Part shown: positions 12,182 through 64,000 of the stretch, piece after piece
How positions within the stretch are numbered: position 1 is the stretch's first letter
Layout: the number at the start of each line of letters is the position of its first letter
Origin: Escherichia phage A4
Direction: 5' to 3' (one strand)
Sequence record: ON286972
Length of the DNA: 64,000 nt
Position numbers and translations under genes: made by a program
The notes under the pieces: model-generated
What the model was told of the DNA's origin: nothing
Database searches by the model: none
What the model saw: the letters and a program-made list of their open reading frames with translations, nothing else

Positions 12182-12671
<490 letters not shown>

Positions 12672-12688
12672 TAATTAAAGGTTAAACC

Positions 12689-13067
<379 letters not shown>

Positions 13068-13068
13068 C

Positions 13069-14083
<1,015 letters not shown>

Positions 14084-14086
14084 TTC

Positions 14087-14242
<156 letters not shown>

Positions 14243-14270
14243 CAAAACGAAATGATAATAGGAAATTAAA

Positions 14271-14456
14271 ATGCAACTTTTAATTCTTTCAATATTGTAT
14301 ATTATTATAATGGTTCCTATATCAATACGTTTAATTATACTTGAACGATTTTTATCGAAACATGGAAATAGATCTATGATATTTGTACCAATCGGGCTTA
14401 TATTGTTTGGTATATTTGCATTTATAATGGGAATTAACGCTACATTCATTTCATAG
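14271..14456 (+). CDS. small membrane protein
   Basis: ATG ORF with AGGAAA SD; two hydrophobic helices. Confidence 0.5.
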   Translation: MQLLILSILYIIIMVPISIRLIILERFLSKHGNRSMIFVPIGLILFGIFAFIMGINATFIS

Positions 14457-14465
14457 GAAACAAAT

Positions 14466-14947
<482 letters not shown>

Positions 14948-14954
14948 AAGAACG

Positions 14955-14987
<33 letters not shown>

Positions 14988-14988
14988 C

Positions 14989-15044
<56 letters not shown>

Positions 15045-15045
15045 T

Positions 15046-15231
<186 letters not shown>

Positions 15232-15295
15232 TCATTGAATGGGGTGTATTATGGTTCAAGAAGAAAACTGGGGTTTTTAACCTAACGAGGTCAAT

Positions 15296-15438
<143 letters not shown>

Positions 15439-15439
15439 A

Positions 15440-15570
<131 letters not shown>

Positions 15571-28408: not shown

Positions 28409-29371
28409 GTGAAGAAACTAGACTTAAACGCAATTTCCGAAGAAGTACTGGATGAATGTTTTGCGAATGAAGAAGTCAATCCATTGGAAGCAATTGAACC
28501 ATCAGAAGTTATTGAAGATGATATTCCACATAAAGTTCGTAGTAAAAGTAACATTAGTCTCAAGCGTCCAGTAGGTGTGACTAATGAATCCATCATCGAA
28601 GAGATTCGTGCTGGAATTAATGTAAAAAAGAACACTGACCTATTACTTCGTTATAACTATGGTATGATCGTTGATGTTGCTTCAAAGTGTACATGTTATA
28701 TTCCGTTTGAAGATAAAATTGCATATGGTGTAGAAGGTTTTATGCGAGCACTTAAAACCTTTGATCTTAGTAAGAATGTCAAATTCATTACATATGCAAC
28801 AACGTCCGTTTATATGACTATGTATAATGAAAGTTCAGATGCAAATTACATGGTGTACTTACCACGTTATATGAGCGTTCATAACATCCAAGTACGTCGA
28901 TTTAATGAATCATATCAACGTGAACACGGTAAGCGACCTACACCAGAATTAATCTCTGAGAGTACTGGTATCGAGCTTCAGCACGTTAAGAACTGTTTGT
29001 TATACCAGAATGCATATACGACTCTTGATGCACAACTGGGTTCAGATTCAGACGGAACCCTTGGGGATATTCTGAGTTCATCTGCTCGTGATTATAACCT
29101 TAATGTTGATAGCATTTGTAATCCATTACGTTATGCAATCACAGAAATCATTGACGAATTGAGTACTAAAGAACGAGAAATTATCATGCGTGTTCATGGT
29201 CTTGGGGATTACAAAGCAGAAACCCTTCGTGAAATTTCTGATAATGGATATGTTGATGATAAAGGAAACATTGTTAAGTCCCGTTCATCTGTGCACCGAA
29301 AATATAGTGAAGCTATTCAAAAGCTTAAAAAAATAGTACTTGAAAAAGGGTACGAATACGAAGATTTCTAA
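28409..29371 (+). CDS. sigma-70 family RNA polymerase sigma factor
   Basis: region 2-like LLLRYNYGMIVDVA...GVEGFMRALKTFD...KFITYATTSVYM and region 4-like HTH TKEREIIMRVHGLG...TLREIS; GTG start after AGGAG SD. Confidence 0.75.
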   Translation: MKKLDLNAISEEVLDECFANEEVNPLEAIEPSEVIEDDIPHKVRSKSNISLKRPVGVTNESIIEEIRAGINVKKNTDLLLRYNYGMIVDVASKCTCYIPFEDKIAYGVEGFMRALKTFDLSKNVKFITYATTSVYMTMYNESSDANYMVYLPRYMSVHNIQVRRFNESYQREHGKRPTPELISESTGIELQHVKNCLLYQNAYTTLDAQLGSDSDGTLGDILSSSARDYNLNVDSICNPLRYAITEIIDELSTKEREIIMRVHGLGDYKAETLREISDNGYVDDKGNIVKSRSSVHRKYSEAIQKLKKIVLEKGYEYEDF

Positions 29372-29378
29372 AGAAAAA

Positions 29379-29406
29379 GGGTTGACTTAGGTCAGCCCTT
29401 TTTTTA
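29379..29406 (+). terminator. rho-independent terminator (GGGTTGAC-TTAG-GTCAGCCC + T7), same stem family as downstream cassettes
   Basis: hairpin plus T-run right after sigma-factor stop. Confidence 0.65.
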
Positions 29407-29929
29407 TGGGACAAAATGGATGTTCATGATACAATGATATTGTACAATTCTGTTGGCATGGATGACATGAACCTGATCCACTCGAAAATGTAGAGGGCAG
29501 TTGAGCAGTCCAGCAGTGCGAAGTGCAGAAGAAACCCGTCAGATGTGGGCATATTATGAACCCCTCACGGCAATGCGGCACTATAAAGAACCACGTTAGG
29601 ATGGCTGGTGGTTCCTCGATAGACATATAAGGATAACACCTTACGAATTATCTAAGGGAGAGTTATCAAATTTTGTACAGGAAAGTTGCGTCCAAAATTT
29701 GAGTACTCACATTAAGTATTTGATTGCATAGATACTTAATGAAGATACACTATGTTTAAAAGTGTAGACCGTCATATGAAACTGAAGTAGAGAGAAACAG
29801 GATGACCCGCTTTCGTACTCATTAAGAGTAATCTTCAATGCAATAGCTCTGATACCATCAGCGTCAAATTCCCCTCCCAGCGGGGGGAAGAAAAATCCCT
29901 TCCTCAAATCCCGTCAATATTAAAAGTCC

Positions 29930-29958
29930 TTGACAGTTATTAATCATTCGCGTAGAAT
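29930..29958 (+). promoter_or_regulatory. sigma70-type promoter (TTGACA-N17-TAGAAT)
   Basis: hexamers upstream of gene 30023. Confidence 0.5.
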
Positions 29959-30022
29959 ACGTAGTATTAGAAGCGAACAGACATCTCGAAGAGATGGATG
30001 ACTAACTATTAAGGAACATTCA

Positions 30023-30232
30023 ATGAATACTACAATCTTTTTAATTGTTGCTCTTTCAATGCAATCCGGTGTACAAATTACCCCTATGAATTCATTAAAC
30101 CAATGTTTTTCTGTACGTGATAGTACATACGAACAAGTAAACAAAAATTCTTGGATGACAGTTAGTGAAGAACAAATGTGGTGTTACAAAAGTGATATTA
30201 AAGCGAAATTTATTGTAGGACAAACTCAATGA
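30023..30232 (+). CDS. secreted small protein (signal peptide)
   Basis: ATG ORF with AAGGAA SD; N-terminal hydrophobic signal. Confidence 0.55.
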   Translation: MNTTIFLIVALSMQSGVQITPMNSLNQCFSVRDSTYEQVNKNSWMTVSEEQMWCYKSDIKAKFIVGQTQ

Positions 30233-61948: not shown

Positions 61949-63091
61949 TTATTTCCACGGTAGAAGTGAATCAGGAACCCTTGTCGGTACATTTGTAGTA
62001 GACACCCCATCAAGATTTGGTACACCGCATGTATATAAATTATCAGCATCGTCAACTAACATCGTATAGTTATATCCCCTACAAAAACTACTAACATTAC
62101 GACCTTCTAATGCAGTAAGAATCATTTCAGTGAATGTTGTTATATTTGTCGAGGTTGAACCAACACCACATTGTCCATTTGAATTAAGACCACATAAAAA
62201 TAACTTATTATCATTTTTAATTATACAGGATGGTCCAGTAAGGTTTGTACCAAGCTCACCCACTAACTCTATTTCACCTTGGAATGCTAAATTTGGAATT
62301 AATGTACTCATAGGGGCTGGTGTTGTATTCCCAGTACCTGCTTGACCACGTTCGTTGGAAGATGCAACTTTAACTGTTCCATCACTAAGAAATATATAGG
62401 AAGTTTCAATTGTATTGACTGCTTTAATTGCAGTGCTGATAGAAGTTTCTTGTGTAAATCTTAGCACGTTTTGTGCTGACGTTCCCGATATAAACGTATT
62501 ACCTGCATACCAATATGTACCATCATTGAGTACTAATGCAGTACTTCGAATTGCACAACCAGCACTTCGAACATTTTCTATAGTACTGTACGTGAATTGT
62601 GAAACGCTTGCCGATGAACCATTTCCGAATACACCACCACTCCCAGCACCACAGAAGAACCACTTTCCATTTTTCAAAAATACACGCATACACGCAGATA
62701 TAACAATACTATCAATATCATCAGCACTGACACCGAAATCAGCAAAGTGCGATGTCACATCAACCCAAACACCGTTAGTGTTTGATGCAATTACTGGAAT
62801 AACAGAACTTGTACCAGTGTACCAAATAGTACCATCTTTCTTTATCGCTATTGTTCCTTGAACACCACCCCAATATCGTACAACATTTGTATTGACGAGA
62901 GTCCATGCGGTTGAAGAGTTCAATGAACCATTACCACCTTGACCATATGATGAAGAACCAAACCAATATAGATTACCATTGGTGTGTAAATAAAATTTGG
63001 CATCTGCCGAGCATTGTAACCTATTTTTTAATCGTGGTGCGGGTTCCGGTGCAATATTCCCGTACTCTAACATTCTAACAAAAGGTAACAT
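61949..63091 (-). CDS. RCC1-like beta-propeller protein with MLPFVRMLEYGN leader (array member 2)
   Basis: 380 aa; motifs GNLYWFGSSSYGQGGNG, NKLFLCGLNSNGQCGVG; only 12 bp (GGAGG SD) after upstream gene. Confidence 0.75.
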   Translation of the reverse strand: MLPFVRMLEYGNIAPEPAPRLKNRLQCSADAKFYLHTNGNLYWFGSSSYGQGGNGSLNSSTAWTLVNTNVVRYWGGVQGTIAIKKDGTIWYTGTSSVIPVIASNTNGVWVDVTSHFADFGVSADDIDSIVISACMRVFLKNGKWFFCGAGSGGVFGNGSSASVSQFTYSTIENVRSAGCAIRSTALVLNDGTYWYAGNTFISGTSAQNVLRFTQETSISTAIKAVNTIETSYIFLSDGTVKVASSNERGQAGTGNTTPAPMSTLIPNLAFQGEIELVGELGTNLTGPSCIIKNDNKLFLCGLNSNGQCGVGSTSTNITTFTEMILTALEGRNVSSFCRGYNYTMLVDDADNLYTCGVPNLDGVSTTNVPTRVPDSLLPWK

Positions 63092-63103
63092 AATTCCTCC
63101 ATA

Positions 63104-64000
63104 TTATTTAAAAACATACTGCGTATTAACACGAGTGCCATTGTCAAAACCAAGTACATAAAATATCTCAGCACTATTCTTAGAACCAAATAACGCACCA
63201 GTACTACTACTCAAAGTAGTATTAACCGCTAAGGGAATCCATATGTCTTCTTCTGCATCGTATCTCAATAAATTTAATGCACCATACGACACTGCATATA
63301 TATTTTTATCATATGTACTGTAACATATTTTACTAGGGTTATTACCACCAACTGGTGCTATGTTAGACCACACCGCACTTTGTATATGATATTTTTGTGC
63401 AGTACTAGTACCTTGACCAGTAATATATATGTAAGTACCATCCGTACACATATCACCACCTCCATTGTTATTTGTTCCATCACTTGTACCTAATGATGAC
63501 CATGTATTAGTACTTGGAGTATAACTGTATAACGAATTATTAGTAGGCGAACCCCACAAATATATCTTATCCCCAGCAGTAATCATCTTACTATACGCCA
63601 GTTGACTAGGCTTCCCAATACTGTTAGTGTTCAGAATCCATGTATTTGTACTTATATTATATACATAAAAATTATTACTACTATTACCTGAACCACCAAA
63701 CAAATATATTTTTCCCTGATAAGCACATAACGCACTACCAAATGTAGATACAGGTGCATTGGCTAATTGTGACCACGTTCTTGTAGTTAAATTAAAACTC
63801 CATAACTGATTATCCGTCTGCACCGCATTCTGTATACCACCAAATATATAAGCAATATTACTTTCCGCATCATACGTATAACCAAAGTTATTTCGTGCTG
63901 AAGGTACTGGTGATGTAGTAAATTGTGTTCGTACTCCACCATTTGGGCCAGGTAATGGACCTACATTCCCGAACTCAAACATTCTTACAAAAGGTAACAT
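63104..64000 (-). CDS. Kelch-like beta-propeller protein with MLPFVRMFEFGN leader (array member 1)
   Basis: start codon is the last 3 nt of the window; repeated ...TNTW/TRTW... blade motifs (STNTWILNT, STNTWSSLG, TRTWSQLA). Confidence 0.7.
   Translation of the reverse strand: MLPFVRMFEFGNVGPLPGPNGGVRTQFTTSPVPSARNNFGYTYDAESNIAYIFGGIQNAVQTDNQLWSFNLTTRTWSQLANAPVSTFGSALCAYQGKIYLFGGSGNSSNNFYVYNISTNTWILNTNSIGKPSQLAYSKMITAGDKIYLWGSPTNNSLYSYTPSTNTWSSLGTSDGTNNNGGGDMCTDGTYIYITGQGTSTAQKYHIQSAVWSNIAPVGGNNPSKICYSTYDKNIYAVSYGALNLLRYDAEEDIWIPLAVNTTLSSSTGALFGSKNSAEIFYVLGFDNGTRVNTQYVFK

Follow-up and report, generated by a model that had tools for sequence, protein, structure and literature searches.

Large non-coding RNAs with an intricate fold are, to our knowledge, rare. 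Little more than a dozen classes are known to us, and nearly every large-RNA class with a solved function is a ribozyme or a piece of the core cell machinery. RNA II of ColE1 is ~550 nt long and requires a specific fold, and its G-run forms a persistent hybrid. Bacteriophage T4 has several dispersed origins, which depend on transcripts made by the host polymerase, and T4-like phages carry group I introns. The put RNA of HK022 is ~70 nt long and has two stem-loops.

Two described groups of RNAs come closest to the subject of this work. GOLLD and ROOL are large “ornate” RNAs, often encoded by phages or prophages; they form Rfam families and have been studied by cryo-EM (PMC12286853). In the Pseudomonas jumbo phage PA5oct, RNA-seq defined four ORF-free + strand “lncRNAs” of 236–619 nt; two lncRNAs make up 2–5% of phage reads throughout infection, and two are located in the terminal repeat (PMC7318152). 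PA5oct is a distant relative, within the same phage group, of the phage considered here, and it is the only related phage with RNA-seq that we found. Thus phages of this group can express abundant long non-coding RNAs.

The locus described below lies in a 64,000-nt stretch of the genome of Escherichia phage A4 (sequence record ON286972), hereafter called the window. The source phage is one of the RaK2-like jumbo myoviruses, and its close relatives include Escherichia phages 121Q and PBECO4 (genus Asteriusvirus). The ends of the window map to positions ~61.7 and ~127.6 kb of 121Q. The initial annotation of the window pointed to an ORF-free region with several hairpins at 29407–29929, downstream of a sigma-factor gene, and suggested that it could encode a regulatory RNA or serve as a site of replication or packaging. 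Our best reading is that this gap contains an independent + strand gene of a ~430–480-nt non-coding RNA, which would occupy 29442–29868 and possibly extend to ~29920; we infer both ends, as well as transcription, its early timing and the action of the RNA. It seems rather probable to us that the gene is transcribed early by the host RNA polymerase and that its product works in folded form, be it by binding other molecules or by catalysis.

Like GOLLD and ROOL, the element is phage-encoded, standalone and intergenic, with many covarying helices and conserved junctions. One of its pseudoknots (PK2) pairs a hairpin loop with a distant strand, which is the type of contact that holds subunits together in GOLLD and ROOL. 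Unlike them, this RNA is smaller (~450 nt), is present as four conserved paralogs per genome and belongs to enterobacterial jumbo myoviruses; it lies ~14 kb from the tRNA cluster of the window, and in the 121Q flanking regions inspected no tRNA gene adjoins a copy. The Rfam models of GOLLD and ROOL do not match the element. Two of the PA5oct RNAs map to the terminal repeat of that phage; in contrast, searches of the terminal repeat of the relative fEgEco12 detected no copy of the present element. Homology to PA5oct ncRNA001–004 was considered and rejected: an unfiltered nhmmer search gave a marginal 47-nt match (E 0.11), and the covariance models R1 and R2, which we built for the domains of the element, found nothing. 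Several motifs of PA5oct ncRNA001 (L090, ~560–650), namely GAUAGAC, a UAAGG...CCUUAG hairpin, UAUAAAG and GUAAGGGG, resemble those of the 5' domain in a different order, which may be a coincidence.

The Rfam/Infernal scan proposed in the initial annotation was performed. With gathering thresholds, the 4227 covariance models of Rfam 15 found only six tRNAs in the whole window, at 12.5–15.6 kb, and no family that matches the gap. A relaxed search of 29200–30200 (E up to 10) produced only sub-threshold chance matches, mostly to the upstream terminator hairpin. No riboswitch family matched in either Rfam 15 search, and the RNase P models had no match in 29200–30200 even at E up to 10; the motif AAACAG..ACCCGCUU loosely resembles CR-V of RNase P. 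ARAGORN found no tRNA or tmRNA in 29400–29930, and full-text literature searches found no description of such an RNA family. The family therefore appears to be a new class with no detectable relative, a member of a loose group of large structured RNAs; we do not claim a new mechanism.

The gap is real, and so are its borders. The coding sequence of the sigma factor ends at 29371 and is followed by the hairpin and T-run that had been called its terminator; we read this hairpin directly from the sequence, and a simple terminator scan left it unscored. The promoter reported at 29930 is near-consensus (Table 1), and the first + strand gene beyond the gap starts at 30023. All ORFs that overlap the gap are short (25–35 aa on the + strand, 79 and 66 aa on the − strand). 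None is conserved across 44 family members, among which the longest stop-free stretch drops to 39 aa on the + strand and 36 aa on the − strand. Each of the six frames of the window copy contains 7–11 stops. A mini-ORF from an AUG after the G-run of hairpin P16 was rejected: neither its frame nor its start codon is conserved, and the window has AAG.

Some deposited genomes carry small “hypothetical proteins” over the RNA loci (OR699182, OR699282, PP886230, PQ330092, PV611058), with a maximum of 4–6 such calls in some records. An example is 121Q gp516 (51 aa, minus strand, 247799–247954, L009), which is called on copy D. Such calls are probably spurious, a practical point for several deposited genomes. 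The hairpin that follows the sigma-factor gene, AAAGGGTTGACTTAGGTCAGCCCTTTTT, recurs at least eight times elsewhere in the window with 80–97% identity (at about 37270, 37627, 39000, 40284, 41917, 44385, 45115 and 47106). This set looks like a family of near-identical terminators that separate small genes.

Region 29407–29929 is 92–94% identical to ~30 genomes of 121Q/PBECO4-like phages (blastn). In phages of distant genera the blastn alignment is confined to 29472–29919 of the window, with 68–72% identity; the matches are in Serratia phage BF, Erwinia pEa_SNUABM phages, Pectobacterium phage CBB, Cronobacter phage GAP32, Yersinia phage fHe-Yen9, Xanthomonas phage XbC2 and Salmonella phage Munch. 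The matched stretches were left empty by annotators, and the flanking genes have no alignment there. Absence of conservation in relatives had been named as evidence against a function of the gap; we observed ~70% DNA identity in distant genera, with helices that covary, which chance would by far not produce. The family has been kept, with four copies in each genome, across at least seven phage genera, and the hosts of its carriers include Escherichia, Klebsiella, Salmonella, Serratia, Erwinia, Pectobacterium, Cronobacter, Yersinia and Xanthomonas.

Every record has 4–5 places that match in blastn. The assembled genome of 121Q contains four paralogs (at 90300, 192816, 247499 and 326680), all on the + strand, 55–112 kb apart, and each in an ORF-free gap of 0.6–0.85 kb; copy C is flanked by minus-strand genes. 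Nine further genome-size contigs have four copies each and an eleventh has three. The counts for the nine contigs were obtained from locus-to-contig tables together with profile matches; a few of the copies counted are truncated where a locus ends. Phages of different genera have neighbouring genes of the loci in common, and a comparison of neighbours found no protein family that accompanies all four loci.

The window contains one copy according to BLAST and both covariance models; the other BLAST matches, considered as extra copies, proved to be repeats of the upstream terminator hairpin. The window copy scores 107.9 bits with R1 and 180.8 bits with R2, both of which had this copy in their training alignments. 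By our provisional family criteria it is a member: it matches R1 and R2, its PK2 and P10 can pair, and it lies in an ORF-free gap behind a TGnTATAAT-type box. Klebsiella phage RaK2, which is barely detected by blastn, was outside the training set. Its counterpart, by synteny, of the 121Q copy B locus has a 740-bp ORF-free gap, and this gap matches both models (62 and 102 bits). A marginal match of the 3'-domain model to 121Q 277093–277228 (L010 27093–27228; 15.5 bits, E 0.47), between an HNH endonuclease gene and gp565, is probably noise.

Two pattern scans and a profile search of IMG/VR resulted in ~55 copies, 45 of them distinct and of full length; one of these (L035) was later rejected. L016, L026, L034, L035 and L044 had been regarded as distant members, but they have the search pattern only, and neither a clean profile nor the covariance model accepts them. 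A loose gapped-pattern scan added at least four true members from metagenomes (L229, L244, L296, L298), and for bacterial genomes it gave no member among the matches listed.

Table 1. Features of the window copy and its borders (window coordinates; pairing values refer to the alignment of family members)
Feature	Position	Strand	Remarks
Terminator-like hairpin and T-run	~29376–29406	+	Closes the sigma-factor transcription unit; upstream border, outside the RNA
Putative RNA promoter: GGGACA (−35-like), 16-nt spacer, extended −10 TGaTACAAT	29408–29435	+	Sigma-70 type
Structured RNA element, conserved extent	29467–29919	+	nhmmer family-profile match, E 3e-99
5' domain, P1–P6	29473–29643	+	Invariant junctions UGAG, AGAAGAAACC, GCAAUGCG, UAUAAAG, GAUAGA, UAAGGGA
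P1, apical loop GAAAAUGUA	29473–29500	+	86.5% of cells paired; 7/8 pairs change on both sides
Invariant junction UGAG	29502–29505	+	
Hairpin P2	29505–29519	+	100% paired; 2/3 pairs change on both sides
P3	29522–29526 with 29578–29582	+	100% paired; encloses P4 and variable hairpin P4b
P4	29536–29539 with 29567–29570	+	100% paired
P5, GAACCAC/GTGGTTC hairpin	29588–29614	+	7/7 pairs change on both sides; up to four standard pair types per position
Invariant single-stranded GAUAGA	29618–29623	+	From alignment columns
Hairpin P6	29628–29631 with 29640–29643	+	98.9% paired
Invariant UAAGGGA	29653–29659	+	From alignment columns
P7, optional inserted module (..AUUUUGUACAGGAAAGUUGCGUCCAAAAUUUG..)	29660–29708	+	Missing from some copies
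3' domain, P8–P13	29710–29844	+	Invariant GACCGU and AGAAAC.G....ACCCGCUU
P8, 13-bp hairpin	29710–29741	+	94.5% paired; 11/13 pairs change on both sides; also found by RNAalifold
PK2 pseudoknot, P8 loop AUUGCA with UGCAAU	29723–29728 with 29839–29844	+	99.6% paired; 6/6 pairs change on both sides
Hairpin P9	29745–29767	+	90.5% paired; 5/6 pairs change on both sides; also found by RNAalifold
Invariant GACCGU	29767–29772	+	Follows P9
P10 pseudoknot, GUCAU with AUGAC	29771–29775 with 29802–29806	+	100% paired; 3 pairs change on both sides; crosses P12
P11	29783–29787 with 29833–29837	+	100% paired; 4 pairs change on both sides; contains P12 and P13
P12	29790–29794 with 29810–29814	+	100% paired; 2 pairs change on both sides
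Hairpin P13	29816–29830	+	85% paired; 4 pairs change on both sides
Hairpin P15 (GAUAC..GCGUC)	29851–29867	+	Register-corrected: GACGA/UCGUC versus GAUGC/GCGUC, A-U to C-G compensation
Direct repeat site 1, AUCAGCGUCAA	29857–29867	+	Within P15
P16, CCCC/GGGG hairpin, UUCCCCUCCC-AGCG-GGGGGAAGAA	29869–29892	+	89% paired; only one-sided C-G to U-G changes
Direct repeat site 2, AUCCCGUCAA	29908–29917	+	Followed by an AT-rich box; co-varies with site 1
Promoter of downstream genes, TTGACA-17-TAGAAT	29930–29958	+	11/12 consensus matches; downstream border, outside the RNA

Covariation supports an RNA. A model of ~20 helices was obtained from a column-pair scan and RNAalifold. For pair counting, the 44 distinct copies were aligned anew with MAFFT, which gave a mean column identity of 61%. 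As a control, the partners of each helix were displaced by 1–3 columns. Standard pairs occupy 88.3% of the cells in the 107-pair model versus 38–43% with slid partners. Changes on both sides were observed for 69 of the 107 pairs (29–33 in the control), the number of compensated cells is 701 (68–107), and the covariation score is 0.433 (0.06–0.10). None of 500 shuffles attained any of the values observed for the model. P2, P3, P4, P10, P11 and P12 are paired in 100% of cells.

The structural model was built from the same sequences that were tested; this concern is addressed by the slid partners, by an independent RNAalifold run, which recovered P8, P9, P11, P12 and P13, and by RaK2. In RaK2, PK2 is formed by CUUGAA with UUCAAG, a new compensating variant that is absent from the training set. 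Cells with G-U outnumber those with A-C (300 vs 95), which indicates that the folded strand is the + strand, in agreement with the direction of the promoter. Single-sequence folding of the window copy is modestly better than that of shuffles (z = −1.78). Thus the evidence rests on the comparison between copies and not on folding energy. The folding program does not model pseudoknots, so z is expected to understate the stability of a pseudoknotted RNA.

These data bear on two earlier suggestions. The two hairpins listed in the initial annotation exist: GAACCAC/GTGGTTC, placed there near 29575–29610, has its arms at 29588–29594 and 29608–29614, and the one near 29870–29890 is the CCCC/GGGG hairpin P16. 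Both turn out to be parts of something larger, a ~450-nt RNA with some 20 helices and two pseudoknots. The suggestion of a regulatory RNA thus holds in part: the RNA has strong support, and a regulatory role is a conjecture.

At the equivalent upstream place all four 121Q copies have a TGnTATAAT box and a GACA −35 element. Transcription of the window copy would start near 29442, and a variable leader of ~25 nt separates this presumed start from the 5' domain. The family has roughly 100 invariant positions. The internal loops of P3 and P4 (AGAAGAAACC, GCAAUGCG) are rich in A and hardly vary, P4b has two alternative forms, which are mixed among paralogs, and the loop of P12 holds the near-invariant AGAAAC.G....ACCCGCUU. 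Pairing support for P7 is weaker, for which gaps in the alignment are partly responsible, and P15 was under-scored in the fixed-column count because of a one-base register shift. A module of ~30 nt, UUUGUACAAUAUAGAUCCGUCCAAAAUU and its variants, occupies two insertion places, P7 and the P13 loop, and is absent in some copies; it was seen in L052, L039, L046, L029 and others (alignment A2, columns 125–160).

The direct repeats on the two sides of P16 are 10–11 nt long, with the consensus AYCA-K-CGUCAR for site 1 and AYC-Y-CGUCAR for site 2. For each variable position of site 2, the best mutual-information partner is the same position of site 1; the two sites agree in the final base in 43 of the 44 copies and in the Y in all 44, and rare variants such as UUGUC or GCGUC occur in both sites at once. 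No complementary column that co-varies with the sites was found in the 44-copy alignment. All four 121Q paralogs are in the GUCAA state at the repeats, which suggests either that both sites are recognized by a genome-specific factor or that the 3' module has a DNA-level role. The repeat motif is found almost nowhere else in the genome. Pairing of the GAUGAG junction (29500–29505) with site 1 or 2 is possible on paper, but it was rejected for want of compensating changes. About half of the copies, among them the C- and D-type paralogs, have a textbook intrinsic terminator inserted between site 1/P15 and P16. P16 and site 2 are almost invariant in spite of the upstream terminator in many copies, and their conservation equals that of the core. 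This suggests a DNA-level or read-through function, which a trans-acting RNA would not explain.

We propose the following sequence of events. Soon after infection, the sigma-70 form of the host RNA polymerase would initiate at the extended −10 promoter. Its transcript would fold into the 5' and 3' domains, and the 3' domain would be locked by two pseudoknots, one between the P8 loop and a strand 110 nt downstream and the other formed by P10, which crosses P12. The folded RNA would then either catalyse a reaction or be the scaffold on which a protein or RNA assembly forms, and its invariant junctions would make up the binding or active site. It would act neither as an mRNA leader nor as a bare DNA site. 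Against a trans-acting RNA stand the fixed positions of the copies and their single orientation, maintained through long evolution, which would be natural for a cis element and needless for a diffusible RNA. A bolder and rather unlikely version is that the family represents a new RNA machine (a ribozyme, or an RNA-only or RNA–protein assembly, made when infection begins) or the RNA half of a new kind of origin, where the folded transcript would cooperate with the co-evolving repeat-hairpin-repeat DNA, with non-redundant paralogs. If the RNA machine or the origin RNA were true, RaK2-like jumbo phages would be defined in part by this family. Several carrier phages grow on E. coli K-12 or other laboratory strains, so the RNA is directly testable.

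The fixed positions and the single orientation, kept even inside a block of minus-strand genes, would be explained by the main alternative, a replication origin at which the transcript and the downstream repeat-hairpin-repeat DNA cooperate. The promoter, which is of sigma-70 type and hence early, would drive a structured primer precursor. This RNA would stay hybridised or be processed near the direct repeats, the G6/C4 inverted repeat and the AT-rich box, and would prime leading-strand synthesis near the 3' DNA module; a genome of 350 kb would thus have four origins, one at each of the dispersed copies. The element resembles ColE1 RNA II and the T4 origin transcripts in its length of several hundred nucleotides, its own host-polymerase promoter and its direction toward a G-run/AT-rich DNA module. 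The locus has a promoter, the G-run hairpin and an AT-rich box; the repeats, inverted repeat and AT-rich box are kept beyond the terminator, as would be expected of a DNA-level site, and the gene products of 121Q include a T4-type replisome, a UvsW-like helicase and RNase H. However, a fold with ~100 invariant positions and two covarying pseudoknots is more conserved and complex than a primer is known to need. In many copies a terminator intervenes, and release of the RNA just ahead of the supposed origin works against R-loop priming. The cumulative GC skew of 121Q follows gene orientation and has no feature at the four loci, which makes it uninformative as an origin marker, and the copies have no linked initiator gene. 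On balance we regard an origin as possible but unlikely.

A cis-acting leader is a still less probable explanation. Such a leader could act by antitermination, as put of HK022 does, or like a riboswitch, with the terminator after P15 as the regulated step. The element does lie directly behind a strong promoter, and in about half of the copies a terminator follows; A/B-type copies, which have no terminator, have + strand genes 100–160 nt downstream. Sites 1 and 2 are alike, as alternative pairing partners of an attenuator are. HK022 put is similar in being a structured RNA right behind an early promoter and ahead of terminators; it differs from the present RNA, which has ~450 nt and pseudoknots and in some copies no co-oriented downstream gene. 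In the window a leader role is unnecessary because the downstream gene has its own near-consensus promoter, and C-type copies, such as 121Q copy C between minus-strand genes, precede genes of the opposite strand. The absence of a neighbour protein family common to all four loci and of any riboswitch family match argues in the same direction. Moreover, the terminator stem overlaps none of site 1, site 2 and P15, so that no mutually exclusive fold is apparent, and no complementary column co-varies with the repeats.

That the element is a self-splicing intron (degenerate or ORF-less) or some other mobile RNA or DNA element, with the repeats as target-site duplications or splice-site mimics, is very improbable. 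It would accord with the group I introns of T4-like phages, with HNH endonuclease genes at most ~1 kb from 121Q copies A and D, with the short direct repeats that flank the 3' module and with the ~30-nt module inserted at two positions. However, the element is located outside genes, behind a promoter of its own, and its loci are syntenic across genera, thus it has not been moving. The fold does not fit either: the 3' strands of P10 and P12 are separated by CCG only, where a group I intron needs its P8 hairpin, and the 5' strands of P10 and P12 are 14 nt apart, with no P4–P6 domain between the pseudoknot strands. No model of a group I or group II intron or of another ribozyme matched at E up to 10.

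The least credible alternative is a site that acts only as DNA (for packaging or a terminus, for recombination, or as a protein-binding array): P16 with its flanking repeats, kept beyond the terminator, does resemble an inverted repeat between iterons, but the 3 to 1 excess of G-U over A-C is unexpected for duplex DNA or a cruciform, long-range and pseudoknot pairings 30–110 nt apart covary, and no copy lies within the mapped terminal repeat of fEgEco12. That 21-kb terminal repeat was defined experimentally (PMC13070987). Both covariance models found no copy in positions 1–24000 of fEgEco12, the sole terminus region examined, so the packaging role suggested initially is unsupported.

Several other observations concern the genomes around the element. 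A second ORF-free stretch, ~1.7–2 kb long, was seen at 121Q 135194–137161 (L007) and fEgEco12 1–1689 (L333). It is matched by neither RNA model and, from gene order, appears to be located at the left end of the terminal repeat. The six tRNA genes of the window (Ser-tga, Gly-tcc, Ser-gct, Met-cat, Asn-gtt, Thr-tgt) are at 12491–15560, interleaved with small ORFs; the set is slightly unlike that annotated in 121Q, where Leu-taa is present and Ser-act is listed. Finally, window positions ~62500–64000 match many places in the array of RCC1-like “chromosome condensation” genes of 121Q (119–131 kb), and therefore the window ends within a tandem family of paralogous minus-strand genes.
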